Below, in pieces: positions 5,852-61,630 of a stretch of 64,000 bases of DNA. The DNA comes from Phyllobates terribilis (lineage: Eukaryota), in NCBI RefSeq assembly GCF_046119375.1, contig NW_027362769.1, forward strand, positions 367,288,001-367,352,000. The letters run 5' to 3'. Under the pieces are notes generated by a model. That model was not told where the DNA came from and searched no databases. It saw nothing but the letters and a program-made list of their open reading frames with translations. Position 1 is the stretch's first letter. Each line of letters begins with the position of its first letter. A program made the position numbers and the translations under genes.

Positions 5852-7119
5852 TGACGCGCCCCCTGGGCCATGCTGCGCCGCGCCGCGCATGCGGGGACAC
5901 CCGGAGCCGGATCCAACTGGGGTTGTAGTCTCCGAGTGGCTGGGACCCGGTCCGTGCCCAGGGTGGTCAAACCGACAGCAATCTATTTGTAATGTTGTTA
6001 TAGAGTTCGACTACGCCACCCGTTGATTTGCGGTCACAAGGCCGCCGCTGCAAAACAGTCCGCTGAGGCCGGTGGTATATATGTGCAGCTATGGTGGTAT
6101 AACCCCCAACGAGAGAGGTATAGCCTCAGGGCAGCTGGTACGGGAGAAGGGAGTGATAGTGAGAGCGTCCCGGTACCTATGGTGCTGGTGGTGCGATGGA
6201 ACACAGAGACTGATTGCAGCTTTCAATGCTTTACTCACAGTTGTTATTAACGTCAGTCCTGCAGGTGATGACGACCCGAGCCGTGCTGCGTCCACCAGGT
6301 GCGGGACTCGGCCAACTCCCAGGCAGTTCCAGAGCGTGGTCCTGAGCTCCCCTCTCCTCCTTCCTACTGGCCGTCCCCACCAGGGATCCACCTCTGTCCG
6401 GCTCCCTCGGGCCTTCTGGTGGTAAAACCTTTCCCGGCTTCCCTGACCCTATACGTGGTTTGCCTTCCTGGTGGATATGGCGAGGGGTCGCGCCAAAACT
6501 TGTCCACGACCTCCGGTTCCTGGCAGAGGATATTTGGCCTCCACCAGTTTGGGATCCGGTACCCTGTTCTGCCAACCCTTCACCCGTTAGCTCGTGGGAT
6601 CTCAGGGTTCCCTCTTCTCCTGCGTCTCTGGGCCTCTCCTGGCGCTTCTGTTCTTTCTCCTTCCGCTGTCTCTCTGCTTCAGGCCTCCACTCCAGGCCTG
6701 ACTCTGGAGCTGGGCCCGGACTGAGCCACAGCTCCCTGTCAACCCTCTCTGGCTGAGCTCCTCTCTTAACAGACCCCTGATCCAAGATGGTGCCCCCCCT
6801 TATATACTCCCTTCTGACACCCGAGCCCAGGTGACTAGCACCCAATGGGCTCCTACCTATGCCCAGAGTCCCTCCCCTCTCTGCTCCTACACCACTGGGA
6901 TGTTCCTCCCCCCCCACTCCAGCCGGGGACAGAAGCTGTCGTACCTGCACATCTATCTGGTGGGAGTACCGTTGGTCTGTCCCCCGGAAATGGGGTGAGT
7001 GTAGTGCATGCAGCTAACTGAGCTCAGTTCCACACTCCATCCTTACCCGGGAGTGGAATACCACACCTCTGGTTCGAGGTGCAATACCCCTGTAGCAGCC
7101 GAGTCCTCGGGGTGCTACA
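5852..7119 (-). mobile_element. Solo LTR A (LTR-retrotransposon, probably Ty3/Gypsy-type)
   Basis: TG...CA termini. 4-bp TSD CATG (5848-5851, 7120-7123). Sense-strand TATA (gagtatataagg) followed by CCATCTT. Clear similarity to the LTR at 58736-59954, which abuts a PBS. Confidence 0.85.
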
Positions 7120-11226: not shown

Positions 11227-11269
11227 GATTTTTTTCAAAAGTAAGAAAAAAAGATGACGATATGGTGAC

Positions 11270-11569: not shown

Positions 11570-11659
11570 ATGACAACTTATTCAATATGATGACCTAATG
11601 TAAACAAATTCTGTGCCGTACCTCTGGGTTCAAAATGTTCACTATACACCTTAATAAAA

Positions 11660-21660: not shown

Positions 21661-22898
21661 TGTGGCGCCCCTGAGGGTTCAGTCGCCACAGAGGTACTGC
21701 ACCTCAACCAGAGGTGTGGTATCTCCTTCTCTCAGGTAAGGAGGGAGTGCTGCCCGGAACCCCAACACCCACATTCAACACTACACTGCTCAAGGCCGGC
21801 TGGAGGGGCAACATGCATTCGCAAAGCTGAACCCTGTCCCTGGCTGGAGTGGAGGGGAACCCAGAGGTAGGGGGAATCAGTAGTGGGTGTGGGTGGAGGA
21901 AATAGTTTAGAGGAGCACCATTACAGGAGGCATATAAAAAGGGAAGCCATCTTAGGGTGGCAGTGCAGTAGAGCTCAGTGAGTGAGGGAAATCAGTCTGG
22001 GAGCAGAGGTTCTTTAGGAGCTCTGCTCCACAAGTAGGGCCCAGTCCTAGAGGCCCAGGAGGGGAGCAGATGAGTAGGCTCCGATCTACAGAAGGGATCC
22101 TAGGGAGTACGGCGAGTGCAGGACGGCACCCGTACGTCCCGAATCTGTCAGAAGACAGAGGGATCGTAGGCCGCAAGAAGAGGACCGGCCCCTGGTCCAG
22201 CCGTGTTACTCTAAGTCTCGGCTGGGAAAACCGGAGGCTTCTGGCTTATATAGTCAGTTGCCGAAGCCTCATTCTAATCCCCGTGAGGGTCAAGCAGGTC
22301 CAGGAACTCCAACAAGACAGGAGGGACTTCAGAGCACCCGAGCAGGATTGAGAGTGGGGAAGCGCAGGGCAGGAGGGAGAAAGACCCAGCGTGAACACAA
22401 GAAAGTGGGGTTCTGTCAGGTGCTTCAAATCTGCCTGACGAAGAGCTGAACCACTGCCTGGTGAATGCAGAGCGACGTGGGAGGCTAGCACCCGTACAGT
22501 GCACCAGTGGAACTGTCATAAGAACTGTGAGTAAAAACTCAGATGACTGCACCGTACTGCCTCCGTCCATTCTTTCATCTGCGCCCTCTTGCCTCCTGGC
22601 ACTACAACGCCCAGAGCAAGTTACACTACCTACACTGCCCTGGAGCTAAGCTCTACCTGTGGAGAGCCACACCATCCCTGCTGCCGTAACACCAGCTCCA
22701 GAGGACTGCTCCGCAGCGGCGGCTCCCTTTAGCCGCATTCCACAGGTGGCGTCACGAACACTGCACAAATCCCCTATAAATATTACCCCCCTTTTTGGTG
22801 ACCGCCCTGGGCCACGGACCGGGCCAGCCACCGTGATATCCCCCACCAGCATCCATAGGCCCGGCTGCCGAGTACCCCACGGCTCTGGGGGCGCGTCA
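21661..22898 (+). mobile_element. Solo LTR B (same clade as LTR A/C/D) inserted in the satellite
   Basis: TGTGGCGCCCC...GGCGCGTCA termini. TSD CAAC/CGAC. 5' end similar to LTR A/D (gtactgcacctcaaccagaggtgtggtat). TATA (catataaaagg) plus CCATCTT. Confidence 0.85.
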
Positions 22899-26470: not shown

Positions 26471-27066
<596 letters not shown>

Positions 27067-27100
27067 GCGCCGCTCCTCCACATCTGTCCGAACAACCAAA

Positions 27101-27116
27101 GGCTCTTCTAAGAGCC
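27101..27116 (+). promoter_or_regulatory. Histone 3' stem-loop of H2A
   Basis: CAAA-GGCTCT TCTA AGAGCC-ACCA. Confidence 0.95.
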
Positions 27117-27964
27117 ACCACATCCTCCTCATCAGAGCCGGCACCGCTGATAGCAGGCGATGGTCCACACTATATAGAGAGAACAACACGATCTATTCTA
27201 TGTTCTACTGTATGATTTACTATAGATCAGAAATGTAAAGCATTAAATAGGTTGATCCTGCTATATTTCGTAGCGCAGATACTAATTTTAGTGACCCGGC
27301 TAATAGAGAGTTAAACGGTGGAGAAAACACTTGTATCTGGTATTGGTTGGCGCCTGCTGAGATGTCTGTAATTGGTGGTTTTGAGTTTCCCGCGCAATCT
27401 TTCTTTGTGCGTCGGATTATTACCCGCCCCTCTGCTTGTAGCGGAGATCGCAATCTGAGCAATGCGGTCTGAGCACAGCTCTACCCCTCTGAGAATACAG
27501 CGCAGAGCAGCTTTCCCCGAACACGGTAATGGTTCTTATCGAAAAGAGGATGGTTCTCCACTAATCATTTATGTGAGGTCATGAACCTTCAGCGGCCTCC
27601 ATATACACTGAGCCTGATACAAGCCCCGTCCTCAATCACAGGATCTTATGTTTCCATTCTGTAAGCAGCACTCGGAACATCACTACTGATGGGAGCAGTT
27701 GCGTATCTTGTATTAAAGAAAGCTGATACTGCTTCAATAACTCGGGATATCTACAGATTGCTGTAAGGAACGCAATCAGCCCGTCAAATACTATACATCA
27801 CTCCAACCACAACAAACTCATCCCTTCAGTGCAAGTATCCTCAGTTATCAATGAGTGAACATTTTTAACTCATGAACAGCGTATAAAGCTTGTACTGGCA
27901 TTCACACAAGCACAGGGATTGTTACTCCAACAGGAGATTGTAGCCTCTCATCTAGAAGATGTGG

Positions 27965-27980
27965 TGGCTCTGAAAAGAGC
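27965..27980 (-). promoter_or_regulatory. Histone 3' stem-loop of H4
   Basis: GGCTCTTTTCAGAGCC-ACCA on the minus strand. Confidence 0.95.
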
Positions 27981-28013
27981 CTTTGGGTTGTCAGGATGGA
28001 GCAGAGAACACAA

Positions 28014-28530
<517 letters not shown>

Positions 28531-30092
28531 CCGCAGCTTCTAATTATATATGTTTTACCTGTGATGAGAAATGTTTCAAAAACAGTCTGTAAATAAAAGG
28601 GCAGACACGACACCAGCTGCAAGTGATCTACACTTCATATAGAAACATCAGATCACTGCTGAATATACCTGTAACGGCACTGACAGTGATTAACCCCCAC
28701 TTCCATCATACCAGCATATTCGTAACATGCTATTCACTAATGTCCAGGAAGGGTCATTTCCGCACCTTACTACTCCCCTCATCATCCCTTGCATTCTGTA
28801 CAATCTACATGTGACATTCTGGCTGCTCCCGGTGACTAATCTATAGGATCCTGACTGAGCTCTGACATTTCTAAGATGGGCTTGTCACTTCTGATAGAAT
28901 TGCTCTTGGGGTGCGGTGATGTGAGGAGGATTGTGGCTGCCAGGATTATTGCCTCTTCTAAGGACAGTGCAGGGAGGAAGCCGCGGTCAGCAGCACTGCT
29001 CCGATACTAAATATTTTGCCACCACTGGGATTTTCCGCTCATCAGAAATGACAATATTTACTTTCTCCTAATAACACTTGTATTGTAATTGTCAGAGATC
29101 ATAAAACTCAGATATCACTTGTTTCTTCATATGAAGATTTGCATTTAGAGAATGTTATTTTCATGTAGAAGATAATGACAACAGCTCAGGTCAAATAAAA
29201 AAGGAACCGTATAAATAACAAAATCACTGAGCAGCTGATTGATTCTCATTCCAGTGGTCCCATATCCAATGGAGAATACACTGTGATCTGGAAGGTGATT
29301 ACATGAATGTGCTCAGTGGAGTTTATCTATAGACCGGACAATTCTCTTCACAGCAGAAGTAGTAACACAATTACATGTAGAAGCTGCGGAAACTCCAAGG
29401 AGCGGGAAATTCAAACTCCCTAACGTCCTGTGTTCAGCCAATCAGCAGAGGAAGGGGAGGAGCTAATGTTAGTAGTTACCGAATAGGAAGTTCCCGCTCA
29501 GGGGCTGATGGCTTTTTCTGTCCTTCTGGATCACGTAGTTTCAGGACTGTCGGATATCAGGAAATTTGCTTGTGTTGAGCGATCAATGGTCTCTTGGTTC
29601 CATACAGGAATTTCTATCATTTTCCAGGATCCAGGGAACAGTATCCGCTTTCTATAAACACAAAGTGCAGAACTGATTCTAACAATGGTGACTCCATCAC
29701 ACCAGCAATATGCCGGGAATATAAAGAAACGAGATACTGCAGTTTACAGAGAACTTTGAAAGAAGGAGGCGGGGATTTTATAAAATGTAGGTTAATATTA
29801 TCTAGATAAACCTACTACAGAGCTGCAGAGGATATTAGTCTCTTAATCCTGATGCGTTTTCAGGATCAGACCCGTGCTGCTGATAGGAGTCAGCGAGTGT
29901 TCACAGGAGATAGCGCTGGATAATGGACGTCCTATAATGATCGCATCATATACACCAAGAAATCTGCGCATGCTTTCTAGATTTCTTCACAACACCGTAC
30001 AGACTCCTAATAGATTATATAAAGATATTATTCAATAATCAGGGTAGAGAAGCAGATGTGAGGGATTAGCTCGTTATTATGGAGGATTTGGT

Positions 30093-30108
30093 GGCTCTGA
30101 AAAGAGCC
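30093..30108 (-). promoter_or_regulatory. Histone 3' stem-loop of H3
   Basis: GGCTCTTTTCAGAGCC-ACCA on the minus strand. Confidence 0.95.
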
Positions 30109-30139
30109 TTTGTGTTATAGTCAGACGTGTAGGACGGAT

Positions 30140-30646
<507 letters not shown>

Positions 30647-31196
30647 CTACAACTCTATTGGCTAGTTCATAAATTAACATGAGCCGCCAAAACACGTGCG
30701 ATGTCTGCGGCCAATCATTATTCACGAAATCAACCCAACACCCAGTAATCCCGCCCTCATAAAGAGGGGCAGGGTCTCTGTTCACACTCTTTTCTGGCTG
30801 CGGATACTGGCACAGGGTCACACCATGTCTACATGCGGCTTCTACAGCAAGAGCCGCAGTCGTCACTGTTCTATGTCACCAGTACACGGAGCTGTACAGG
30901 CTCTAATCTATCATCAGTCAAATCACTGGTTCTCCAATTCTCACATCGAAGTAATAACCGCACACTAATCCTTTCACTAATAAAGACGCAGGTTACAAGT
31001 GGTGATTGATTAGGATGATGTAGATTTCTGTAGGACATCGGCCCCTTCCCTCCATTGATTACACTGATCGGTCACCTGCACTGGTGTGATCGGGACACAG
31101 CGCAGCTCTATGCGGAGATGTGGGGAAAAGCTTATTCATTATAACACTGGAGCCGCTCCCTGTACACACTATAATCTAGAAGAGGCAGGATATACG

Positions 31197-31899
31197 GGCA
31201 CTGATCATACAGCTCTGCCGGGGACAAGGTGGTGGCACTGATCATACAGCTCTGCCGGGGACAAGATGATGGCACTGATCATACAGCTCTGCCGGGGACA
31301 AGGTGGTGGCACTGATCATACAGCTCTGCCGGGGACAAGGTGGTGGCACTGATCATACAGCTCTGCCGGGGACAAGATGATGGCACTGATCATACAGCTC
31401 TGCCAGGGACAAGGTGGTGGCTCTGATCATACAGCTCTGAAGGGGACAAGGTGGTGGCACTGATCATACAGCTCTGTCGGGGACAAGGTGATGGCACTGA
31501 TCATACAGCTCTGTCGGGGACAAGGTGGTGGCACTGATCATACAGCTCTGCAGGGGACAAGGTGGTGGCACTGATCATACAGCTCTGCAGGGGACAAGGT
31601 GGTGGCACTGATCATACAGCTCTGCAGGGGACAAGGTGGTGGCACTGATCATACAGCTCTGCAGGGGACAAGGTGGTGGCACTGATTATACAGCTCTGCA
31701 GGGGACAATGTGGTGGCACTGATTATACAGCTCTGCAGGGGACAAGGTGGTGGCACTGATCATACAGCTCTGCAGGGGACAAGGTGGTGGCACTGATCAT
31801 ACAGCTCTGCAGGGGACAAGGTGGTGGCACTGATTATACAGCTCTGCAGGGGACAAGGTGGTGGCACTGATTATACAGCTCTGCAGGGGACAAGGTGGT
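31197..31899 (-). repeat. 37-bp tandem array (19 copies) immediately 3' of the H1 stem-loop; each unit carries an HDE-like AGAGCTGTA
   Basis: tacagctct recurs every 37 bp from 31208 to 31874. Confidence 0.93.
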
Positions 31900-31915
31900 G
31901 GCTCTGAAAAGAGCC
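31900..31915 (-). promoter_or_regulatory. Histone 3' stem-loop of H1
   Basis: GGCTCTTTTCAGAGCC-ACCACC on the minus strand. Confidence 0.95.
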
Positions 31916-31945
31916 TTTGTGGTGTAATAACAGGGCGGTTTTGGA

Positions 31946-32602
31946 TTATTTCTTAGCTGCGGGCTTCTTGGCTTTAGTTGCCTTCTTAGCAGGACTCTTG
32001 GCAGCTTTGGGTTTAGCAGCTTTCTTAGCCGGACTCTTCGTCACCTTCTTGGGCTTCGGAGCGGCCTTTGGCTTCTTGGGGCTCTTGGCCGCCTTCTTGG
32101 CAGCTGCTGCGGGCTTCTTGGCCTTTTTCGGGCTCTTCTTGGCCGCGGTCGGAGCCTTCTTGGGCTTCTTCGGAGACTTGGCGGCTTTCTTGGCTGCAGC
32201 AGGCTTCTTGGGCTTGGTCGCAGCTGCTGACTTCCTCTTGGCCGCTTTGTCCTTAGTCTCCTGCTGCTTCTTGTTCAGCTTGAAGGACCCGGAGGCGCCG
32301 CTGCCCTTCACCTGGAGGAGGGCGCCCTTGGTGACCAGAGACTTGACGGCCAGCTTCAGGCGGCTGTTGTTCTTCTCTACATCGTATCCTCCGGCAGACA
32401 GAGCCTTCTTCAGGGCGGCCAGAGACACCCCACTGCGCTCCTTAGAGGCGGACACGGCTTTCACGATCAGATCGGAGACGCTGGGACCGGAGGGTTTCTT
32501 GCTTTTCTTGGCGCCCCCGGCGGCGGATTTCTTCGGCAGTTTCTTGGATTTGGCGGCCGGTTCTGCGGGAGGGGGAGCGGCGGCTGGTGCGGTCTCTGCC
32601 AT
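31946..32602 (-). CDS. H1: Somatic linker histone H1 (218 aa)
   Basis: [14 protein letters not shown]..., globular domain ([28 protein letters not shown]...[10 protein letters not shown]), K/A/P-rich tail. Confidence 0.97.
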
Positions 32603-32669
32603 CGTGTGCTGCAGAACTAGAACACAAATATCTCCTGATAGGAAAACGCTGAGACCGGAGCTGGAGGCG

Positions 32670-32810
32670 CCTGTTATATGTACAGGCTTACTGCGCACTG
32701 ATTGGCTGCTGAGCTGCATCGTCCTGAGCATCTATTGGCTGACACTGAGCACAGGCCCCGCCTCCTTCTAGCTGATCCCGAGTGGAGCTCCGCTCTCCCC
32801 TTGTGCTTCC
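32670..32810 (-). promoter_or_regulatory. H1 promoter (TATA-like, two CCAAT boxes, GC box)
   Basis: catataac (minus) at ~32672-32679, attgg at 32701 and 32734, ccccgcc at 32756-32762. Confidence 0.65.
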
Positions 32811-33399
32811 CTGCCCGGGATAAAAGCCCTTTACCGGCTAACACCGGACAGCAGAGCGCGCTTTCTCTGTCGCTTCCTCTTCTCCATCATCTCCACTGAC
32901 CGTTTGTAGCCGTCACCAGCAGAGATGCCGGGAAAGAGCCGAGAGGAGGTCCCGGGATCATCGCCTTCGTCCTCCCGATCTGCGCATCACTGTGTATCCG
33001 CGAAGATAAAACTGCTGCGGGAGCTCGTTCCTCCTATTCCCGGCTCTTGTCACCATCACAGGGATCTTTACTACAATATCCATCGTACAGGAAGCGGATT
33101 GTACGATGTGGGGACGACCTGGAGCTGCTGAGAGCCCAGAAGGGTAACACAGGCGATGGCCTCCGCTGACCGCCACCTCCCTGACCTGTAATATAAGTAC
33201 ACCCCGTATGTGCAGAGTATTGGGGGTGAATACGTATCCACATCAGTAGATGATCCACATAGGGGGCTGATTGCAATCACCTGTGTAATATCGTGTCTGA
33301 CCCTGTGTGTAGCTGTGACGCTGCAGCAGGTAATGGAGGGAAGAGCTCTGATAAGGCGCCAGCTTCACAATGCGACTCATCCCCCAACCAAACACATAA

Positions 33400-33740
33400 A
33401 CATCTCCGGTGAGATAACTGTGACCATGCATACCAGGAAAGGGGGTGAGGGGGTCATACATACCAGGATTGGGGGATAATGAGGCTATGCATACCAGGAT
33501 TAGGGAATGAGGGGGCCACACATACCAAGATTAGGGGATAAGGAGGGCACGCATACCAGGATTGGAAGATGAGGGGGGCCACGCATACCTGGATTGGGGG
33601 ATGAGGGGGGCATCCATACCAGGATTGGGGGATGAGGAGGCCATGCATACTCGAGTCAATACGTTTTCCCATTTTTTTGTGGTAAAATTAGGGGCCTCGG
33701 CTTATACTCTGGTTGGCTTTTATAAAATATACAGTATTTT
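33400..33740. mobile_element. Fragment of a non-autonomous DNA transposon with ~30-bp internal repeats (gcataccaggattgggggatgagg)
   Basis: Repeated units, and a terminus-like ggcctcggcttatactc...atatacagta. Duplicated at 59955-60140. Confidence 0.5.
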
Positions 33741-34652
33741 AAAATCAGTGAGTACGTGGTGCCCATAATATTGCAGGACTGTGGGGTGCATTATACTATA
33801 TGGGGGCTGCATTTTACCCTATAGGGTGTGTAATATACTGTATGGAGGGCTAGGGGGAGTGCATTATATTCTATGGACCATGGGAAGTTCATTGTACTAT
33901 ATGGAGGATTATGGGGGGCGCATTATATTATATGGAGGATTATGGAGGGCACATTATACTATATGGAAGGCTAGGTGGGGCCATTATAATATTTTGAGGC
34001 CTATGTGGGGGGCCATTATACTGTATGAAAGAAATTATATGGTGTGAAAGTTTGTGTGGGGTCCATCATACTGTTTGAAGGGCTGTGTAGGGGCTATTAT
34101 ACTGTATGTAAGCCCATTATGCTGTATGGAGGGCTGTGTAGGGGTCACAATTGGGGGATCATACTGTGTTGGGGTCACCAAACTTTGCCTTGGGATTTGA
34201 GGTGGGGTACAATAGCTTCATTATACTGTGCATGTGGAGGCATTCTCCTTGTGGGTGTCATACTGTGTTTGGGGGACACTTTTATGGGGTGTCATACTTT
34301 ATGGGGGCAATGAAAGAGGAATCTAGGACTTCAGCAGGAGGAAAATTACTAAGTAAAGGCTGGAAAGTTGTGAGATCTGCTCTTCTGTGACACAGATAAA
34401 TATATAAAAAGGAGACCCCGGAATATCTGATCTGGGGAGCAAGTGGTTGAGTTAAAAGCCACTGAACACAGGACAACTCGCTCAAAAATTACTGAAAGGA
34501 TCAGAGCTGTGAAGGAACTCATTCATAGTTTTCACTATCAGTCTAGAAAGGCTTAATCAGCTCTACTAGCGCCACCTGCCATTTACCCTGTGAATAGACG
34601 TAGACAGGAGAGGACACAGGAGCAGCCACAGCTCTGATGTAGATGGTGTGGT

Positions 34653-34930
<278 letters not shown>

Positions 34931-35107
34931 TTAGTGATGGACCCTCTGCAGCGGCAGAGCAGGGAGAGCGATCTCCCTGCTCTGCCTACTGCTGCAGTGC
35001 CCCTCTGCCTCCTCTTCGCAGAGCGACACTGCTGGTGCGTGAAAAGGAGGTCAGTCTCAGGCTTTCTGTGCGCACTGTGGAGGATGGACCGGCGTCGCCC
35101 CAGGCAG

Positions 35108-35432
35108 CGGCAGCAGAATGTATGGGCTCCTACCAGGTATATATTATTGGAGGCAGGAGAATGTATGGGCTCCTGGCAGGTATATATTATTGGAGGCAGG
35201 AGAATGTATGGGCTCCTGTCAGGTATATATTATTGGAGGCAGCAGAATGTATGGGCTCCTACCAGGTATATATTATTGGAGGCAGGAGAATGTATGGGCT
35301 CCTGGCAGGTATATATTACTGGAGGCAGGAGAATGTATGGGCTCCTGGCAGGTATATATTACTGGAGGCAGAAGAATGTATAGGCTCCTGTCAGGTATAT
35401 ATTATTGGAGGCAGGAGAATGTATAGGCTCTA
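35108..35432. repeat. 43-bp tandem repeat (~8 copies; 3 copies in the duplicate at 61523-61630)
   Basis: gaatgtat at 35116, 35159, ... 35417. Confidence 0.9.
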
Positions 35433-37306: not shown

Positions 37307-40100
37307 ATGGACAAGGTGCATGGTAAGGGACGGGAAAGTGGACGTGATGCTGATGGCGTACGCAGAGCCCAAGGCCGTGGGCAAGATGAAACTGTGCCTG
37401 CTGAGGGAGCACAACAAGCACACACATGTCAACCTAGCTTCCTGTCCCACTTTTTAGGGGGCTGCGGAGCACCACTCTTGAAGACAGAGCAGTGTGAAAA
37501 GGTTGTTGGTTGGATAGCAGATAATGCTTCAATCAGTTTGCCACTACCACCACCCTCTCTTCCACATGGTCCAGTCTCAGTAGCCGTGACTCTGGACCAC
37601 ATAATCCTCACCCTGATCCTCCTTCCTCCCACCATACCGAGTGTCCAGAGACAAGTGATCTCACACTTGGATACTCCGAACAGCTGCTCACATTTCCATT
37701 GATAGATTCTGGCCTCTCGCTTTGTCCACTTCAATCGGGGCAAGAGGAGAACGCATGTAGTGATGCCCAAAATTTTGAGCAGCCACGATCACACGAAGGC
37801 GACGGTGGGAAAGTGCAATTACTGTCGCAAAAGGTGGATGATGATGAGACACAATTGCCAGCAAGTCAGAAAGAGGCCCAGGGTGCGTACGTGGAAGACG
37901 AGGTGGTGGACGATGAAGTCACTGACCAAACCTGGCAAAATAACATGCATAGCAAGGAGAGCAGTGCAGAGAGGGAGAGAGGCGTATAACCACAACAAGC
38001 AGGAAGAAGCAGTGGGGTGGCCACAGACACAAGGCAGGCAACTGTTCCCCAAAACACCAATACGAGAGAAGTTGCCAGTCCAACTGTTAGTCTTCCAGAG
38101 TCTGGCTCTTTTTTAAAGACTGTCAAGATAACCCCAAAAAAGGCTATTTGCAACATCTGCCATGCCAGCATCAGCAGGAGCAGCAAAACTACCAGCCTGA
38201 CCACCACCAGTATGCTCAGGCACATGACAGCAAAGCACCTGACTAGTTGGCCAGTGATGGTATATTTCACTGACGGCACACTGGGTTAATATAATGGAAG
38301 CCGGGACCTAGTCGGACCTTGGGACGGTACACATCCTCCCGACGCCGAGGATTGCGGGCCCCGGGTCAATCCGGATTGCCCCCACATTCTAAAGCTCCTG
38401 CACCTCATCCTCCTCTTCAGCCTCCATCTATAAAAAGGACCACATCAGCTGGAAGCTGAAAGTACTGTATCACTACCTCGGCCAAGCAGCAACAGGCTCT
38501 GCTGAAGCTTATCTGCTTAGGCGACAAACTGCACACTGCTGCAGAGTTGTTGAAAGCTGTAACAAAGCAGGCAGATCTTTGTCTCTCACCACTGAACATA
38601 CAGCCAGGCATGGTCGTGGGTGACAATGGCCGGAACATGGTGGCGGCTCTGAGGATTGGCAACCTCACACACGTATAATACCTGGCCCATGTGCTTAACC
38701 TCGTGGTTCAGCGGTTTCTCAAAACCTACCCAGAGCGGCCTGAGCTTCTTTTGAAAGTATGCCATGTGTGCCCATTTCAGAAAGTCAGCTACAGCTTCTG
38801 CTGCCCTGACAGTGCTTCAGCAGCGTTTGCAGCTTCTAGCTGACCGACTAGTGTGTGATATCACCACACTTTGGAACTCAGCATATGTTAGGAAGGATTT
38901 GTGATCAGCAGAGGGCAGTTGTTGAGTACCAGCTTCAACAGGCAGTTGTAATTCAGGTCAGCCTAAGCACATTAGAGCTGATGAGTGGGCATGGATGTAT
39001 GACATCTGTGCAGTCCTCCAAAACTTTGAGGACTCCACCAAGATGGTGAGCGGCGATGACGCCATAATTAGTGTCACCATCCCGCTTCTCTGTCTACTGA
39101 AACGCTCTCTGTTCACAATTAAAGAGGAGGCATTGCAGGCGGAGCACGATGAGATGGAGCAAGGAACTTTACAGGGTGATTCCACACATCCCAGTCTCAC
39201 CTTATCTCAATGCAGATTGGGTGATAATGAGGAGGAAAAGGAGGAGAAGGAACAGGAACTGGTTTCCTGCGCTAAAGACGGTACTATCCACACCACATTC
39301 ATACCGTCTGTTCAGCGTGGATGGACTGAAAAGGGGGAGGACAAGAAGGAGGACCAGGATGAGGATGAGAACATGGACAGTTGTCCTCTTTGTGGGGACA
39401 GGGAAGTCTTGGCTGTTGGCTGTCTGGCGCACATGGCTGACTTTATGTTCCGCTGCCTTTTCTGTGACCCTCGCATTGTACGTATTTCGAACAACAGTAA
39501 TTACTGGTTGGTCACACTTCTAGATCCGTGCTACAAGGAGAACTTTCTATCTCTCCTTCCTGTGACTGAGAGGTCTAATAAAATGTTGCAGTACCAGAAG
39601 GCCCTTGTTGAAGAATTACTAAAAAAATCCCCTGCTGACAATGCTGGCGCCAGAGGTCACAGTTCCTTGGACAACCAAGGAGTGCAGGTGAGAGAAACAG
39701 AACTCCAATCCAGCAGAGGCAGGGGAACACTGTCAAAGGTGTGGGGCAGTTTTCTCAGACCCTCCCAGCGCCCAGGCCCTTATGAGCGGGGTAGTTTCAC
39801 AAGGAGGGAAAAGTTTTGGAAGATGCTGAAGAAGTACCTTGCTGACCGTACCAGAGTCCTCCGTAATTCCTCTGTGTCTTACAACTATTGTGTATCCAAG
39901 CTGGACACGTGTCATGAACTGTCTCTCTACATCTTGGAGGTCCTGGCTTGCCCTACCACTAGCGTTTTGTCAGAGCGGGTTTTTAGTGCCGCCGGGGGCA
40001 TTATAACTGATAGGAGCATCTAACTGTCAACTGAAAATACTGAAAATGCTGACAGGCTGACTCATCAAAATGAACAAGGGTTGGATTGGGCCAGACTTCT
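37307..40100 (+). pseudogene. Degraded hAT transposase (BED zinc finger, catalytic core, hATC dimerisation domain)
   Basis: AICNICHASISR...MLRHMTAKH (BED, ~38130-38240), DNGRNMV...LAHVLNLVVQ, RLVCDITTLWNS, CPTTSVLSERVFSAAGGII. Multiple stops and frameshifts. Confidence 0.88.
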
Positions 40101-44408: not shown

Positions 44409-45680
44409 GTTTCCTGTTGTGCTGGGGGTGATCTGCGCTCTGCTGATTTCTCCTCTTGCTGGTAGATCGCTCTGGTATCAAGTTTCGTGCTCCACATACT
44501 GGGGAGTCGGAAACGTTAATAATTGCGCAGAGCTGTGGACTGTATGTCCTGATTAGCACCAGGCTCAGTGTATATGCAGAGTACGAGATCCTTTGTGCGG
44601 CTGCCTGTAATATTGGTAGCTGTTACAGCCTGGGACGTGTCTGTTATACACTCCTGACATGTACTGGTGTGTCTGCTCCGCAGTCTTTCACTTCTGGAGC
44701 TGACACCGCTGACTTTGGGTGATGTGATGTGTCTTCTTATGGATCTATAACATAAATATTACACACAGTGGATGCGGGGGAGTGGTGATACATATAGCTC
44801 TGTGCACACAGCTCATACCCTGCTGTGATGCGGTTATTACAGAACAGAAATCCAAGTCTTGCCATGAGATGAATGTGTTGATTCTGCTACATGATATTTT
44901 TTTCAGATCAGTGTAGGACGCAGGGGCAGCGAATATTCACTGCATGAGGCAGCTGGATAGATGGCCGCCCTGTGTACCCGGTATGTAGACTCCTATGTGA
45001 TGACCGCGGATCTGTTTAGCCAATGACTAGGAACCAGATATAAGGGTTTCCTCCTCCGTTTAACTCCTTAGTGGCCGTGTGACTGCTGATCACACACATG
45101 CTTTACACAAGCGGCTCCTTCCCCCACTCCAGACCCGCAGCGCTCACATCAGGCTCCTGGTAGAACCTCAGAGACTTGTCTTAGTCTGTGGAGTGATCGG
45201 CGCCGACACCACAGGGAATCCGCAAAGAATACGTGGGTGAGTGAGGAGCCTCCTGCACGTGTAGATGGAGCGGAGAAGCATCAGATCACTGCTGAATATA
45301 CAGATAACGGCATTGATTGGAATTAACCCCCTCTCCCCCTACATGAGGATTGTGTGGAGCTCAGAAAACCCAGGCAAAAATAATCGTCCAATTTATAGGT
45401 TTATTGGAATAAAAATGACTGGACTCCATGCTTAATCTTCCCCTATGCAAATATTTACCAATCATCCCTTCTATAATGTGCTGAATATACTAGATCACTG
45501 CCCAGCCAGGTAAAAGTAATCGCTGCACCATCACCACACCAGTAACATGTAGCAGGATCGACCTGTGCATTTAATGCTTCTACTCTATAGTAAACAATGT
45601 ATCGTGTAGTTCTATCTGACGCTGCAGGCGATGGTTCTCTTATCCACCAGCGGTGCCGGCTCTGATGAGGAGGATGTGGT

Positions 45681-45696
45681 GGCTCTTAGAAGAGCC
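45681..45696 (-). promoter_or_regulatory. Histone 3' stem-loop of H2A copy 2
   Basis: GGCTCTTCTAAGAGCC on the minus strand. Confidence 0.95.
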
Positions 45697-45730
45697 TTTG
45701 GTTGTTCGAACAGATGTGGAGGAGCGGCGC

Positions 45731-46836
<1,106 letters not shown>

Positions 46837-52243: not shown

Positions 52244-53254
52244 TGACTTGCCCCCTGAGCCGTGGGGCACCCGGAACCGGGGTTTAGTGCGATGATGGGG
52301 GTAGTAGTGGCAACCCCATCCCGTGGCTCAGGGTGGTCAGACCAAATGCTGTGGCAGTCTATTTGTAGAGTTATGAATGTCCGACTACGCCACCCGTGGG
52401 TTGCGGTCAGGGATGACCGCCACTGCAAGGCAGACCGCTGATGCTGGTGTGCAGCACAGGGATAGGATAACTCCCAACGGGAAGAGTGTAGCCTCAGGGA
52501 AGCGTATGTGAATGCTGGTGGTGATAGTGCAGGCCGCAATAATAAGAGTTCAGAATCCGCTTCAAACAGTCCAGGGTCTTTATTGTAGGTATTACTAATG
52601 ACCCGACAGGAGTACCGGGTAGGAATGGGCCTGGGTGTCTGAGAGCATTCGGGCGAGCCCCACTGGTCAGGGTGAGTGTGAAGGCCTACCGTTCTCACTC
52701 TGCCCTTGCTGACTATCCCCCTTTTCGTGGTGTAATAGCCCACGTCCCTGAGCTGGCCATGTACTTCGCCTGTATGGCTTGCCACTCGGGCCTTGGGTAC
52801 CTTTTGCTTCCTCGTGCTGTACCGTTTCCCTCTGTGTGGCGGAGCCTCCATGCTTCTTTGGCCAAGGGACCTGAAATCCCTCGCGGGTTGGTTCTCTGCT
52901 GCTGGGCTTGCAACCCTGACAGCCTCGGACCCCAATGTCCGTTGGTGTAGTTCTCTCATCCAGAACCGGCTCTCGTCGCCTCTGTCCCTGGCTCGCAGCT
53001 TCTCCTCTGCCTCACGGACTCCTTGGCTACAGCTGAACTGTCCCTCCTTCTCTGGGACTAGTCTCAGTCCTGAGCTAGGTCGTCCAGTTCTCTCTAACCC
53101 TGCCCTCAGTTCCAGCTTTTATAAGGGCAGCCAGCTCCACCTACTGGCCTGGGACAGGAGGTGCTGTATGCTAATTGTCCCTGACCAGGGAACCTAACTC
53201 CTGCTCTCAGACACAGCCTATAATATTTGTGGCATCCAGGCCTGGGGTGACACA
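52244..53254 (-). mobile_element. Solo LTR C (same clade)
   Basis: TG...CA termini. TSD CCCC (52240-52243, 53255-53258). Shares the gactacgccacccg...gccgc.ctgcaa block with LTR A/D. Confidence 0.8.
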
Positions 53255-54260
53255 CCCCGATCACCTGAGGATAACAAGGTCCTAATTCTAGAAGAGCGAA
53301 CTTTTAAAAATCTGACTTATTTTGGTAGTGGGTTCTATGAGCGCCATTCAATCCTCAAGTAGGGGATGGCGGGAGAGGGGTTAATTCCATTCAGTGCCGT
53401 TATCTGTATATTCAGCAGTGATCTGATGCTTCTACTCCGCTCCATCTACACATCCAGGAGGCTCCTCATTCACCCACTAATCTACATTGATACCCTGTGG
53501 TGTTCGCTCCGATCCAACTGAGGAGAAGTCTCACAGGTTCTACAAGGAGCCTGATGTGAGCGTCGTGGGGTCTGGGGAAGACCCCGCTTCTGTAAAGCAT
53601 GTGTAAGTGCGGAGTGGGGATCAACAAAACACACGGCTACTAGAGTTAAACAGTGGCAGAAATACTTGTATCCGGTATTGATCGGCGCCTGAGGATGTCT
53701 GTCTGTCATTGGCTGATCACAGATCCGTTGGCTGTTTTTAATTTCCCGCTCAATCGTTCTTTGTCTTTTGTCATATTACCGGCTCCTCTGCTTGTAGGGA
53801 GAACGCTATCTGGTCTGGGGGAAGCTCTACCCCACTGTACGGCGCAGAGCCGCTTACCCCAATCACAGTGATCGTAGAGAGAAGGGTGGGCCTCAATTAT
53901 TAATTATTTTCGGGTTAACAATCTTCACCATCATTCAAGGTTTTCTCCAAGCAGCACTCGGAACATCGCTATTGATGGGAGCAGGAATGTACCTTGTATT
54001 ACAGAAAGCGGATACTGCTTCCATAACTCGGGAGATCTACAGATTCCTGTATTGGACGTAATCGGTGATTGACTAGAAATCATTCCAACCACAAGAAACT
54101 ATTAACCCTTCAGTGCCAGTATTCTCGGAGCTCCTTGTGAACAATGACTGAGTATTTTAATTCCTATTAAACAGTGTATAAATCTCGCACTGACATTCAC
54201 AGAAGCACAGGGATTATTACTCGCCAGCAGGAGATTGTAGCCTCACTTAGAAGATGTGGT

Positions 54261-54276
54261 GGCTCTGAAAAGAGCC
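54261..54276 (-). promoter_or_regulatory. Histone 3' stem-loop of H4 copy 2
   Basis: GGCTCTTTTCAGAGCC on the minus strand. Confidence 0.95.
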
Positions 54277-54308
54277 TTTGGGTTGTCAGGATGGAGCAGA
54301 GAATACAA

Positions 54309-54827
<519 letters not shown>

Positions 54828-56256
54828 CTATAACGGCACTGACAGTGATTAACCCCCACTTCCATCATACCAGCATATTCGTAACATGCTATTCACTAAT
54901 GTCCAGGAAGGGTCATTTCCGCACCTTACTACTCCCCTCATCATCCCGTGCATTCTGTACAATCTACATGTGACATTCTGGCTGCTCCCGGTGACTAATC
55001 TATAGGATCCTGACTGAGCTCTGACATTTCTAAGATGGGCTTGTCACTTCTGATAGAATTGCTCTTGGGGTGCGGTGATTTGAGGAGGATTGTGGCAGCC
55101 AGGATTATTGCCTCTTCTAAGGACAGTGCAGGGAGGAAGCCGCGGTCAGCAGCACTGCTCAGATACTTAATATTTTGCCACCACTGGGATTTTCCGCTCA
55201 TCAGAAATGACAATATTTACTTTCTCCTAATAACACTTGTATTGTAATTGTCAGAGATCATAAAACTCAGATATCACTTGTTTCTTCATATGAAGATTTG
55301 CATTTAGAGAACATTTGTTATTTTCATGTAGAAGATAATGACAACAGCTCAGGTCAAATAAAAAAGGAACCGTATAAATAACAAAATCACTGAGCAGCTG
55401 ATTGATTCTCATTCCAGTGGTCCCATATCCAATGGAGAATACACTGTGATCTGGAAGGTGATTACATGAATGTGGTCAGTGGAGTTTTATCTATAGACCG
55501 GACAATTCTCTTCACAGCAGAAGTAGTAACACAATTACATGTAGAAGCTGCGGAAACTACAAGGAGCGGGAAATTCAAACTCCCTAACGTCCTGTGTTCA
55601 GCCAATCAGCAGAGGAAGGGGAGGAGCTAATGTTAATAGTTACCGAATATGAAGTTCCCGCTCAGGGGCTGATGGCTTTTTCTGTCCTTCTGGATCACGT
55701 AGTTTCAGGACTGTCGGATATCAGGAAATTTGCTTGTGTTGAGCGATCAATGGTCTCTTGGTTCCATACAGGAATTTCTATCATTTTCCAGGATCCAGGG
55801 AACAGTATCCGCTTTCTATAAACACAAAGTGCAGAACTGATTCTAACAATGGTGACTCCATCACACCAGCAATATGCCGGGAATATAAAGAAACGAGATA
55901 CTGCAGTTTACAGAGAACTTTGAAAGAAGGAGGTGGGGATTTTATAAAATGTAGGTTAATATTATCTAGATAAACCTACTACAGAGCCGCAGAGGATATT
56001 AGTCTCTTAATCCTGATGCGTTTTCAGGATCAGACCCGTGCGGCTGATAGGAGTCAGCGAGTGTTCACAGGAGATAGCGCTGGATAATGGACGTCCTATA
56101 ATGATCGCATCATATACACCAAGAAATCTGCGCATGCTTTCTAGATTCTTTCACAACACAGTCCAGACTCCAAATAGATTATATAAAGCTGACATTCAAT
56201 AATCAGGGTAGAGAAGCAGATGTGAGGGATTAGCTCGTTATTATGGAGGATTTGGT

Positions 56257-56272
56257 GGCTCTGAAAAGAGCC
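56257..56272 (-). promoter_or_regulatory. Histone 3' stem-loop of H3 copy 2
   Basis: GGCTCTTTTCAGAGCC on the minus strand. Confidence 0.95.
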
Positions 56273-56303
56273 TTTGTGTTATAGTCAGACGTGTAGGACG
56301 GAT

Positions 56304-56810
<507 letters not shown>

Positions 56811-57050
56811 CTACAACTCTATTGGCTAGTTCATAAATTAACATGAGCCGCCAAAACACGTGTGATGTCTGCGACCAATCATTATTCACGAAATCAACCC
56901 AACACCCAGTAATCCCGCCCTCATAAAGAGGGGCAGGGTCTCTGTTCACACTCTTTTCTGGCTGCGGATACTGGCACAGGGTCACACCATGTCTACATGC
57001 GGCTTCTACAGCAAGAGCCGCCGTCGTCACTGTTCTTCTATGTCACCAGT

Positions 57051-58709
57051 GACAAAGACGTCGCCGGGGGTTCTGTGGTCCCGTATAAAACCCCACCCGT
57101 GCTCCATTTGGAATTTTATTACAGTCCCGCTGGCACGGGGACCGTGGGCAGTACGGGGGTTTCTGCGGGCCCGGCGCTTTTGCTCGGCGCTCTGGACTTG
57201 GAGCCGCTCCTCGCGGACCCGCCTCTCTCGTCGCTCCTTCGCAAAAGCCTCCAATTGTTGCCAGCAGCACTCCGTACGCTGGGCTGCGGCTGCCCGGGTC
57301 TCCTCGGTGAATCCCATCAGGTCCTCACCGGTAGGGTCCCACTCAAATTGGGCGTCCTCCAACGGAAGCGGATCGAGTTTGGCGGGCGCAGGAGCCGGAA
57401 TTAGAGGCTCATCCAGAGGCCGTTCTCTCCGGAATCGAGGGTGAATATATTCAGGTGGCCACACGAAGAGCAGCCCGTCCTGGGTGGTGTTTTGTGCGGA
57501 GCGGTCTTCGCCCAGATGGGGTGCTGTGGAGGCAGAGGGCGCTGTGGTGTTTGCGGCGCCCAGGGGCTCCTGGCCTTGCGTCCAGGCCGAAGGTAGTCTG
57601 AATACAAAGGGCGCTTTAAAGATTGCGGCGCCCGGGTCTACCAGGCCTTGCGACCAGACCGGTGGCATGATGGAGGTAGAGGGCGCTGTGAAGACGGCGG
57701 CGCCCGGGGGTACTTGGCCTTGCGACCAGGCCGGGGGCGCTTCTTGCTTGGCCGCGCTCTGAGTCGAGGCGCATGACGTAGCAGGGGGCGTGGCCGCGGC
57801 TCCTGCCGCTTGAGGCCTAGCTCAGAGCGGTGACGATGCAGCAACGTGAGTGGTGAGTGGGGGCAAGCTTGCGACCATCGGGCACGGGGTGTTGTCGTCC
57901 CCATTACCTGCTCCCTTTTCTTCAACTCCCTCCGCGGCGTCGTCTCCGGCCGTCGTCCCTCCTGCACCTTCCTCAGAGGCGGACATGCTCCTTGTCGTGG
58001 GTGGTGTGCTTCGCTGGCGGGTTCCAGCCTGCTGGGCCATCTCCTTGCTCCACTCCGCCAGAGCTTCCTGCTGTACCCGGGCCATCTTCCGTGCGAGGCC
58101 CTCCAGCGCGGTCTGTGCACGCTCCCGATCTCCGGGGAGCTGCGCCAGGATCTCCAGCAGGCCTTCTGTAGTGGCGGCCTGCAACAGGCTCCTGACCACA
58201 GGGTCGGTGCTGCCTGACTCTCCCTCCATCTCCGGGTGTGTTCTCTCTAGACTCCTCCAAGCTGCTCCCATCTTCTCTCTTTTGTTCTGTATCCGCCCCC
58301 ATTGAGGGTGGTCCTGGGGCAACTTGGTGATTGTCAGTTCCAGGGGCAGACCCCCCACGCTGATGGACATCTCAATCATTGCAGTCTCTGCTGGTGGGGG
58401 CGGTCTCCGCTTTTGGCGCCATTCTTCGACCTGGCCCACGATGGGAGGTGGTCTCTTGCCACCCTCTGGCACGCCCATAATGGCGTCCGCTCTGCCAGGG
58501 CGGGAAATCTTCTTAGATGGCGGGAATCGCTTCCCAGTGGCGGGAAACACTGCAGATGGCGGGAAAAGACTGCAGATGACGGGCAAATGGCGGGAACCGA
58601 TCCGAGATGGCGTCCGATGGCGGGGACCCTCCGGAACCGGCGGGAGACTTCTTTTTGAGGTAAATGCGAACTTTTCTTCAGGCACGCAGTACCCGGTGGT
58701 TGCGGGCAC
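57051..58709 (-). pseudogene. First ORF of an LTR retroelement (~550 codons, one in-frame TGA at 57822-57824), ending in a truncated cold-shock-domain motif
   Basis: ORFs 57822..58709 and 57027..57668 are in the same frame and the intervening codons are open. C-terminus SGTVIKFQMEHGWGFIRDHRTPGDVFV. Confidence 0.75.
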
Positions 58710-58711
58710 GT

Positions 58712-58730
58712 AATCCTGCCGACTACGCCA
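58712..58730 (-). promoter_or_regulatory. Primer-binding site complementary to the tRNA-Ser(AGA/TGA-type) 3' end
   Basis: Plus strand AATCCTGCCGACTACGCCA equals the recalled vertebrate tRNA-Ser 3' end including CCA. Lies 5 nt from the LTR end. Confidence 0.88.
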
Positions 58731-58735
58731 AAAGT

Positions 58736-59954
58736 TGACGCACCCCCTGGGCCATGTTCAAGGGATACCCGGAGCCGGATCTGTATGGGGGTAGTAGTCC
58801 TTGTGGCGGTGACCCGGTCCGTGCCCAGGGTGTCAAACTAAGTGGCAGTCTATGGCAGCAGATGTTAATTTGATCGACTACGCCACCCGTTGAGTGCGGC
58901 TTTGAAGCCGCCGCTGCAAAGCAGTCCGATGAGGCCGGTGGTATATGTGCAGCAGTGATGGTATAACCCCCAACGGGAGAGGTATGGCCTCAGGGCAGCA
59001 GGTGTGGATGATGGGTGTAGTTATGTTGTAGAAAGGAGAGTCAGAGACTTGAGGTGCAGTTTCAGGGTTTTTACTCACTGATGTTGCTTTAGTCACTCTG
59101 GCCTTGAGTGACCACCCGAGCCGTGCTGCGTCCACCAGGTGCGGGACTCGGCTAACCCCCAGGCAGTTCCGGAGCGTGGTCCTGAGCTTCCCTCTCACTC
59201 TTTCTCCTGGCCGTCCCCACCAGGGATCCACCTTTGTCCGGCTCCCTCGGGCCTCTTAGTGGTTGAACCTTCTCTGGCTTCCCTGGCCCTACTCGTGGTG
59301 TGCCTTCCTGGTGGATATGGTGAGGGTCGTGGCAAAACTTGACCACGACCTCCGGTTCCTGGTTAAGGGTTACTTCTGCCTCTGCCAGCTTGGGATCCGG
59401 TGCCCTTTTCTGCCAACCCTTCACCCTTTCTGGTCTGATTCTGGGTTCTTGGGGTTCCCTCTGTCTTTCTCTCTGGGTCCTTCTTACTCCTCTCTCTCTC
59501 TCTCTGCAGGCCTTGCTCTGGAGCTGGGCCCAGCCGGAGCCACAGCTCCCTGTCAGCCCTCCTGGCTGAGCTCCTCTGCTCTGCTTCTCCTCAGGCTCTC
59601 TGACCAAAGACCCTATTCTAAGATGGTGCCCACCTTATATACTCCCTCCATGTGTGAGCCCAGGTGACCAGCACCCAATGGGCTCCTAGCTTTACCCAGA
59701 CTACTCCCCCTATCTGCCCCTACACTACTGGGATGTTCCACCCCCCCTCCCACTCCAGCCAGGGACAGACGCTGTCGTACCTGCACATATACTGGTGGGA
59801 GTACCGTTGTTCTGTCCCCCGGAAATGGGATGTATGTAGTGCATGCAGCCTACTAAGCTCAGTTCCACACTCCATCCTTACCCGGGAGTGGAATACCACA
59901 CCTCTGGGTCGAGGTGCAATACCCCTGTAGCAGCCGAGTCCTCGGGGTGCTACA
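58736..59954 (-). mobile_element. 5' LTR (LTR D) of a truncated LTR retrotransposon
   Basis: TGTAGCACCCC...GCGTCA. TATA plus CCATCTT. Close similarity to solo LTR A. Flank CACG corresponds to an empty site near 33548 in the paralogous copy. Confidence 0.88.
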
Positions 59955-61061
59955 CACGCATATCTGGATCTGGATTGGGGGATGAGGGGGGCCACGCATA
60001 TCAGGATTGGGGGATGAGGGGGGGCATCCATACCAGGATTGGGGGATGAGGAGGCCATGCATACTCAAGTCAATATGTTTTCCCAGTTTTTTGTGGTAAA
60101 ATTAGGGGCCTTGGCTTATACTCTGGTTGGCTTTATACAGTATTTTAAAATCAGTGAGTACGTGGTGCCCATAATATTGCAGGACTGTGGGGTGCATTAT
60201 ACTATATGGGGGCTGCATTTTACCCTATGGGGTGTGTAATATACTGTATGGAGGACTACGGGGAGTGCATTATATTCTATGGAGGACCATGGGAAGTACA
60301 TTATACTATATGGAGGATTATGGGGGGCGCATTATATTATATGGAGGATTATGGAGGGCATATTATACTATATGGAAGGCTAGGTGGGGCCATTATAATA
60401 TTTTGAGGCCTATGTAGGGGGCCATTATACTGTATGAAAGCAATTATATGGTGTGAAGGTTTGTGTGGGGTCCATCATACTGTTTGGAGGGCTGTGTAGG
60501 GGCTATTATACTGTATGTAAGCCCATTATGCTGTATGGAGGGCTGTGTGGGGGTCACAATTGGGGGATCATACTGTGATGGGGTCACCAAACTTTGCCTT
60601 GGGATTTGAGGTGGGGTACAATAGCTTCATTATACTGTGCATGTGGAGGCATTCCCCTTGTGGGTGTCATACTGTGTTTGGGGGACACTTTTATGGGGTG
60701 TCATACTTTATGGGGGCAATAAAAGAGGAATCTAGGACTTCAGCAGGAGGAAAATTACTAAGTAAAGGCTGGAAAGTTGTGAGATCTGCTCTTCTGTGAC
60801 TCAGATATATATATATAAAGGAGACCCCGGAATATCTGATCTGGGGAGCAAGTGGTTGAGTTAAAAGCCACTGAACACACGACAACTCGCTCAAAAATTA
60901 CTGAAAGGATCAGAGCTGTGAAGGAACTCATTCATAGGTTTCACTATCAGTCTAGAAGGGCTTAATCAGCTCTACTAGCGCCACCTGCCATTTACCCCGT
61001 GAATAGACGTAGACAGGAGAGGACACAGGAGCAGCCACAGCTCTGATGTAGATGGTGTGGT

Positions 61062-61558
<497 letters not shown>

Positions 61559-61630
61559 TTATTGGAGGCAGGAGAATGTATGGGCTCCTGTCAGGTATAT
61601 ATTATTGGAGGCAGGAGAATGTATAGGCTC

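Follow-up and report, generated by a model that had tools for sequence, protein, structure and literature searches.

A cold-shock domain in the first open reading frame of a truncated LTR retrotransposon from the poison frog Phyllobates terribilis

Introduction

Can an LTR retrotransposon carry, in the position of gag, a cold-shock domain (CSD) of the type found in host Y-box proteins, and what would such a domain do for the element? LTR elements handle their own RNA via capsid and zinc-knuckle proteins. The question is raised by a locus in a 64,000-nt stretch of Phyllobates terribilis DNA (the window, meaning this whole stretch), and it is of particular relevance in frogs, the genomes of which are very large and rich in Gypsy elements; Gypsy/DIRS1 elements make up 13.79% of the dyeing poison frog assembly. 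Host Y-box proteins are RNA-packaging factors that viruses borrow in trans (e.g., PMC8903895). An element that encodes a Y-box-type CSD of its own where gag normally sits would therefore offer a natural test of whether a CSD can do nucleocapsid work or disguise the element RNA as stored germ-line mRNA.

Our preferred reading, to which we assign about an even chance of being correct, is that the locus holds a Ty3/Gypsy-type element with a captured and selected Y-box-type CSD that serves as its RNA chaperone or packaging protein. The element has the layout of an LTR followed by a primer-binding site and a long frame, the domain of a 53%-identical homolog shows the CSD fold, and the helix and CSD are conserved across frogs.

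Results

The element lies within a copy of a histone repeat (54000-61630; sister repeat at 27714-35215), in which H3 (56304-56810), H4 (54309-54827) and an H2B-like frame (60952-61470) were read from the window sequence. The spacer up to 57050 is 98.3% identical to the sister at 28669-30883, and the match to the sister resumes from about 59955-59972. In between, the sister has about 2.66 kb (30884-33547) that include a histone H1 gene (Pfam E=1.2e-22), where the copy described here has 2,904 bp of element DNA, and the whole element segment is absent from the sister. Since the flanks match the sister and its 2.66 kb are gone, a single deletion (or one-ended insertion) took the 3' part of the element together with the H1 gene; the second target duplication was deleted as well. 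Further, because the DNA up to 57050 is spacer of the histone repeat, the truncation of the CSD at RNP2, which the initial annotation had attributed to a deletion, is real.

No further internal-region pieces of the element were returned by tblastn and blastn within the window, only the copy itself, and Pfam matches among 10 selected long window frames were limited to histone H1 and a hAT transposase dimerisation domain, the latter in a frame at 38926-40023 (E=9e-5). The window also contains a 495-bp perfect inverted duplication of histone-region DNA (26655-27149 and 45648-46142, 18.5 kb apart) and a large fold-back of nested inverted repeats, at about 1623-13635, that encloses the solo LTR at 5852-7119.

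Read on the minus strand, the surviving part of the element has the order proposed initially, i.e., an LTR (59954-58736), a primer-binding site (PBS; 58730-58713) and one long frame with a single TGA (58709-57051; Table 1). We take the PBS, TGGCGTAGTCGGCAGGAT, to be the complement of a tRNA-Ser 3' end and the CCGCCAT copies in the leader to be YY1-like. The flanks of the two more distantly related solo LTRs agree at 3/4 bases in each case. TG...CA ends and a 4-bp target duplication fit animal Gypsy mobilisation (accessible text of PMC10886601), and we read the element as what remains, at the 5' end, of a decayed LTR retrotransposon of Ty3/Gypsy type. Its 3' part is deleted, and without pol its clade is not assignable.

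Table 1. Features of the element, its insertion site and related LTRs in the window
Feature	Position	Strand	Remarks
Deletion junction	57050/57051	.	Element DNA fused to histone-repeat spacer
N-terminal half of CSD	57051..57131	-	Strands 1-3, RNP1, start of RNP2
Open frame	57051..58709	-	553 codons, one TGA; ends in GTVIKFQMEHGWGFIRDHRTPGDVFV
Arg/Glu-rich helix	57162..57305	-	48 residues, directly before CSD; core pLDDT about 85-93
72-nt internal repeats	57527..57738	-	Encode Ala/Pro-rich units of disordered linker
In-frame TGA	57822..57824	-	Within region aligned to uninterrupted homolog P0002
Leader with CCGCCAT copies	58517..58623	-	4 of the window's 14 copies, in about 107 bp
Primer-binding site	58713..58730	-	18 nt, TGGCGTAGTCGGCAGGAT, TGG-starting; 5-nt spacer after LTR
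5' LTR	58736..59954	-	1,219 bp, TGTAGCA...GCGTCA, TG...CA ends
PBS-like 11-mer in 5' LTR	58875..58885	-	150 nt before LTR 3' end; conserved predicted RNA structure
AGTAAA in 5' LTR	59075-59070	-	Sequence motif
TATATAA in 5' LTR	59641-59635	-	Sequence motif
Surviving flank CACG	59955..59958	+	Insertion site in minisatellite upstream of lost H1 gene
Solo LTR, same family	5852..7119	-	85% identity to 5' LTR over aligned bases; perfect 4-bp target duplication CATG/CATG
Solo LTR, related family	52244..53252	-	About 70%; flanks CCCC/CACC
Solo LTR, related family	21661..22898	+	About 70%; flanks CAAC/CGAC
PBS-like motif in other LTR	6008-6018	-	
PBS-like motif in other LTR	52381-52392	-	
PBS-like motif in other LTR	22747-22756	+	

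Two side observations concern the LTR ends. The 5' end of the LTR has a hairpin whose outer arms co-change between 59926-59954 and 21661-21690 (TGTAGCA...TGCTACA vs. TGTGGCG...CGCCACA). Moreover, CANN is found at one flank or more of all four insertions (CATG at 5848-5851, CAAC at 21657-21660, CACC at 53253-53256 and CACG at 59955-59958), a possible target preference; two of the sites are in minisatellites.

The frame following the PBS is open far beyond what chance would provide. The other five frames have 8, 12, 7, 5, and 19 stops, and none of 2,000 dinucleotide shuffles had one stop or fewer in any of the six frames, which rules out that the frame is open by chance in DNA of 63% GC. Its position directly after LTR and PBS, coupled to this openness, counts for the preferred reading. 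The earliest ATG of the frame occurs at 58478 (attATGG), and the part that resembles an uninterrupted homolog from the same species (XP_073514116.1, hereafter P0002) begins at a later one, at 58085. As the single TGA is located inside the region aligned to P0002, the copy in the window is broken.

The encoded protein consists, from N to C terminus, of weak helices, a disordered Ala/Pro linker, a long charged helix, and the CSD. A model of the window protein from 58478 (476 residues, X at the stop; mean pLDDT 45) showed three low-confidence helices (60-153), disorder over 229 residues (154-382) and a confident helix (392-439), with the half CSD not folded. A fold search with this low-confidence model gave 0 matches at E<=0.001, which is uninformative, and the ESM Atlas provided no usable match for the N-terminal 218 aa and only generic CSD clusters (scores <=0.85) for the CSD part.

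The motif at the end of the frame, GTVIKFQMEHGWGFI-RDHRTPG-DVFV, had been read in the initial annotation as a CSD signature with an eight-residue spacer before DVFV; we count seven residues (RDHRTPG), the same as the YBX spacing, and the CSD itself is real. Pfam CSD (PF00313) matched the window copy over profile positions 2-28 of 66, with E=0.00093 for a 57-aa end fragment, 0.013 for a 264-aa piece and 0.039 for the whole frame. The truncated copy reaches 19.5 bits and all window scores are below the gathering cut-off of 27 bits, and thus the window alone is only suggestive. The complete CSD of P0002, on the other hand, scored 36.9 bits (E=3.3e-9), and four relatives also exceeded the cut-off (P0006, 33.7; P0056, 44.2; P0077, 38.1; P0078, 32.3), with P0003, P0004, P0075 and P0076 below it. 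The P0002 domain was modelled as a 48-residue helix plus a five-strand OB barrel (mean pLDDT 75.7). Of 70 Foldseek matches at E<=0.001, CspA was the best (E=8.4e-7), and YBX1 and YBX2 were among the first 15; VIA-align gave Z 11.1 to CspB (rmsd 2.4, 70 aligned) and Z 11.0 to Lin28A (rmsd 1.9, 71 aligned). Accordingly, the profile and structure checks suggested with the initial annotation came out positive for the homolog, in both bit score and barrel; for the window copy, the profile match has E=9e-4 and is below the cut-off, and the half domain does not fold. That the motif is a chance look-alike is ruled out by the full domain and fold of P0002. A viral fold library gave 4 matches at E<=0.001, all of them phage or giant-virus CSD proteins, with no retroelement among the best 50 listed.

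Relatives of the protein were found in frogs. A search with 393 codons from 58229 provided a single match among 8,000 scored candidates, namely P0002, which shares 53% identity with the window frame over 359 columns without an intron and has only 36 residues after the CSD. Using P0002 as the query, phmmer returned 73 matches at E<=0.001 among 1.84 billion proteins. Ten of these were looked up: four are named frog proteins (Ranitomeya variabilis, R. imitator, Anomaloglossus baeobatrachus, and Bufo bufo), one is a Logan cluster of the same type (P0041/P0075) and the other five are either unnamed or CSD proteins of a different sort; most of the remaining matches are multi-CSD proteins. A helix+CSD profile built from 6 sequences gave 7 matches (6 frog, 1 JGI) when run on 7,999 candidates with lengths of 285-2,000 aa, and 3 (2 frog, already known, and 1 bacterial) among 1,990 shorter candidates. 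The relatives amount to eight named frog proteins in five hyloid species (XP_073514116.1, XP_077147014.1, XP_075187427.1, CAJ0923454.1, XP_040278526.1, XP_040294270.1, XP_040296155.1, XP_073510849.1), although a successful element should have left more; annotation that follows repeat masking would presumably miss further copies. As to the element family with a CSD proposed at the outset, the CSD is indeed part of the first ORF of an LTR element here and a CSD family does exist across five frog species; the relatives are known as annotated gene models, and it is this one copy that links the CSD ORF to an LTR.

Each of the three Bufo bufo models is on a different large contig, and the two P. terribilis models are likewise on separate contigs. 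Two relatives are fused to unrelated host genes, R3HCC1 in one case and a trypsin-family serine protease in the other. Dispersed and chimeric models of this kind are what mobile DNA inserted within or next to genes would produce. Two Bufo members are named 'Y-box-binding protein 2-A-like' by NCBI, and the models P0056, P0077, P0076, and P0078, which carry the names Y-box-binding protein 2-A-like, R3HCC1, or serine protease 33-like, are probably element-derived or chimeric. More generally, element-derived annotation artefacts probably account for several frog models called 'Y-box-binding protein 2-A-like', or for host genes in which an odd CSD stands at the N-terminus. The UniRef label of the R. 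imitator member is 'CSD domain-containing protein', with no transposon link.

The relatives appear only among annotated host gene models, as the members of a host or domesticated frog gene family would, and the LTR described here would then be a chance neighbour or a one-off capture. We find this scarcely credible given that the frame is unbroken from the PBS (the single TGA aside) and intronless relative to P0002, that the sister histone repeat is devoid of the whole segment, and that the members are dispersed, some of them in chimeric models.

The C-terminal tails are unrelated between members. P0002 and P0006 both end in GGRRR, their tails being otherwise unrelated, which might reflect shared downstream element sequence or an annotation artefact. 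TQT motifs are repeated in the post-CSD tails of P0003 (residues 342 and 353) and P0004 (402 and 465); we take these to resemble dynein light chain LC8-binding motifs, which would offer a second dimerisation route.

Across three linker blocks, the window frame shares 51-52% identity with P0002, as against 68-69% in the helix and CSD, and the better preservation of the latter suggests purifying selection. This bears on whether the CSD could be passenger cargo, that is, a Y-box cDNA fragment copied into a non-autonomous LTR element and carried without benefit. Several observations would fit such cargo: neither the frame nor its relatives show a Gag or Pol domain, this copy is broken, the tails are unrelated, and, within the genome, extra ORFs of rotifer LTR elements do not depart significantly from neutrality (accessible text of PMC5408684). 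However, frames and barrel core are kept at 26-56% identity between species, with helix and CSD above the linker, and neutral decay would not keep frames of 400-550 codons open at such identities. Hence, we judge passenger cargo very unlikely, and favor a selected domain.

In a comparison of the family profile with the PDB (48 matches), eight Y-box sequences came out on top (44.5-45.8 bits), followed by CspA (42.4), CARHSP1 (23.4), Lin28 (<=22.8) and CSDE1 (18.2). The Y-box likeness noted in the initial annotation is borne out to the extent that, by profile, Y-box proteins come closest among the solved structures, with a lead over CspA of only 3.4 bits; the loop after RNP2 differs by a 1-residue gap from YBX vs. 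5 from bacterial Csp. These comparisons favor, by a small margin, a CSD captured from a host Y-box (YBX/FRGY) gene that then diverged. A CSD tree (76 rows; 76 columns, which are too few; no vertebrate Y-box row; bootstrap not settled) does not demonstrate a single capture, since the 8 frog CSDs split in two groups, poison-frog vs. toad/Logan forms, and only 2% of bootstrap trees united them.

Across the family CSD regions (26-87% identical), two residues of the RNA-stacking type, the RNP1 Phe and an RNP2 aromatic residue, are each kept in 10/10 proteins. The strand-1 Trp is kept in 1/10 and the RNP2 His in 0/9, with Arg-Arg next in 8/9. Judging from these substitutions, the family CSD appears to have a remodelled, more basic binding face, and, with the Trp and His lost, its affinity or specificity must differ from that of Y-box proteins.

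With Y-box proteins as the nearest solved CSD relatives, the domain might instead be directed at the host, acting on germ-line mRNPs or the silencing machinery and not in reverse transcription; such a mimic could mask the element RNA as stored maternal mRNA or compete with FRGY2/YBX2. The Ala/Pro-rich N-terminal part (A+P 19-28% in four long members), the CSD, and the acidic then basic tail of P0002 form a layout that we take to recall Y-box proteins, and the NCBI name of the two Bufo members points in the same direction. A close mimic, however, should keep the Trp and His of the RNA surface, which are lost here, and identity to YBX is about 30%. Likewise, the long helix before the CSD is foreign to Y-box proteins, of which, to our knowledge, it is not a feature. 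We therefore regard a Y-box mimic as unlikely.

No capsid or CCHC Pfam family was found in the window frame or in the relatives checked, and the CCHC pattern was found in 0/10 family proteins, in agreement with the initial annotation, which had seen neither motif. Within the visible ORF, no Pfam capsid family, SCAN included, was matched, and the model shows no capsid-like domain, which at a mean pLDDT of 45 does not prove its absence. In the four uninterrupted dendrobatid models, the C-terminus follows the CSD by 36-154 residues and neither a Gag nor a Pol domain is present, which argues against a single polyprotein in the order CSD, gag, CCHC, and pol. Everything 3' of the CSD is deleted here and may have included gag-pol, in which case the CSD-ORF might be an accessory first ORF of an ordinary autonomous element (followed by gag with PNMA- or SCAN-type capsid and CCHC, and by pol) that serves regulation, for instance by controlling the translation of the ORFs after it. 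There is precedent for such a position: the extra ORFs of Ogre lie upstream of gag. The accessible text of PMC6431247 gives '1-2 extra ORFs' for Ogre, and among frog elements, Cer and Gmr have PNMA or SCAN domains (accessible text of PMC4131045). Against an accessory role, a CSD fused to a Gag or Pol Pfam family was seen in 0/7 matches among the 7,999 candidates of 285-2,000 aa, a weak point because separate ORFs would be annotated apart. Moreover, the preferred reading could have the same architecture, with the difference being one of function. We hold the accessory role to be very doubtful.

Finally, the LTRs contain a PBS-like motif, 11-12 nt of which are identical to the start of the PBS in 3/4 LTRs, the fourth being a variant with 6 identical nt; its distance to the LTR 3' end is 149-167 nt across the four, and 167 nt in the solo LTR at 5852-7119. 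The LTR at 21.7 kb carries the differing version TGGCGTCACG, which presumably fits another tRNA-Ser. The 11-mer was present in 1/2,000 LTR shuffles. The motif region has a shared predicted fold of 59 pairs, 12 of which changed on both sides, with 0/500 shuffles as high; the fold was derived from the same four LTR sequences used to score it, which makes it a lead only. In the predicted fold, pairing takes in the 5' part of the motif and leaves the remainder partly free. It is tempting to speculate, based on this prediction, that the motif in U5 may be a tRNA-operated switch or a primer-loading site, and a structured PBS-like U5 region would be an obvious substrate for an RNA chaperone. Helenus/TRIMp3, a short non-coding element with a tRNA-derived LTR bearing boxes A and B (accessible text of PMC10886601), was considered as the source of the motif and rejected, given that the LTR alone is 1,219 bp, the element is coding, and the LTR is not tRNA-derived: ARAGORN found 0 genes, and Rfam over LTR and leader (58200-60000) gave 2 chance-level matches, with no tRNA and no ribozyme.

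Discussion

Under the preferred reading, the LTR transcript would be translated into the CSD protein, the CSD of which would derive, by capture and later divergence, from a host Y-box (YBX/FRGY) transcript. The 48-residue helix, judging from its length and charge, may oligomerise the protein and thereby bring several CSDs together on single-stranded RNA to coat it. The target would be the element's own RNA, which would be melted, protected, or packaged for tRNA priming and reverse transcription, with protease, reverse transcriptase (RT) and integrase provided by separate downstream ORFs or by an autonomous partner in trans. Nucleocapsid and LINE ORF1p (coiled coil plus RNA-binding domain) handle element RNA in a similar way. 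A more radical version is that Gag has been wholly replaced, i.e., that the sole structural protein is a helix-oligomerised, Y-box-derived CSD that packages the RNA as a Y-box-like mRNP, with the second tRNA site in U5 as the switch or loading site. If true, such a Gag-less lineage would represent an LTR element moving without its own capsid; we consider this version decidedly unlikely.

The statement in the initial annotation that a CSD is no standard LTR-retrotransposon domain agrees with the literature examined: in titles and abstract starts, no CSD-bearing LTR element was found (Repbase, Dfam, GyDB, and subscription papers being beyond this scope), and 'cold shock' is absent from the accessible texts, supplements excluded, of PMC4131045, PMC6431247, PMC12208295, 10.1101/2023.11.06.565769, and 10.1101/2025.03.03.638093. 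The example table of frog element domains in PMC4131045 likewise does not list a CSD. Gmr1-like elements have a SCAN capsid and the order PR-IN-RT (accessible text of 10.1101/2025.03.03.638093).

Among known systems, the frog Ty3/Gypsy (Metaviridae) elements Gmr1, Cer, Mag, and Amn-san resemble the element in their TG...CA LTRs, PBS (for tRNA-Ser, presumably, in the element), 4-bp duplication, long first ORF after the PBS, and solo LTRs (accessible text of PMC4131045); the difference is a first ORF that has a CSD here, with no capsid (SCAN/PNMA) or CCHC found. YBX1/YBX2 (FRGY1/FRGY2) share the single CSD, a similar loop length and RNP1-RNP2 spacing, and an Ala/Pro-rich region upstream. However, host Y-box CSDs are nearly invariant and keep the strand-1 Trp and RNP2 His, whereas the family is only about 30% identical to them with both residues replaced, and has Arg-Arg after RNP2, a long helix before the CSD, no conserved tail, and its coding sequence in an LTR element. 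LIN28 is similar in CSD fold (Z 11.0 to Lin28A) but combines the CSD with two CCHC knuckles, as opposed to 0/10 in the family, and the profile gives it at most 22.8 bits vs. 45.8 for Y-box. LINE-1 ORF1p, from a non-LTR element, has a long helix and a single-stranded-RNA-binding RRM in the first ORF. Its working may be similar, even though an RRM is not a CSD and there is no homology. The retron Se72 effector (NCBIfam NF038236), a CSD protein of a reverse-transcriptase element, is the best NCBIfam match of P0002 (33.6 bits), yet this is far below the 82-bit cut-off and the system is one of bacterial defence, which makes it an analogy only. LTR elements with captured ORFs (the DEDDy/GDSL ORF3 of bdelloids, accessible text of PMC5408684; Ogre and Burro, accessible text of PMC6431247) likewise carry a host-type domain as cargo. 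The rotifer cargo is 3' (ORF3) and enzymatic (accessible text of PMC5408684), whereas the domain described here is of an RNA-binding type and at the 5' gag position. That is, captured cargo in LTR elements is already known, and an RNA-binding domain in the position of gag is the unusual part.
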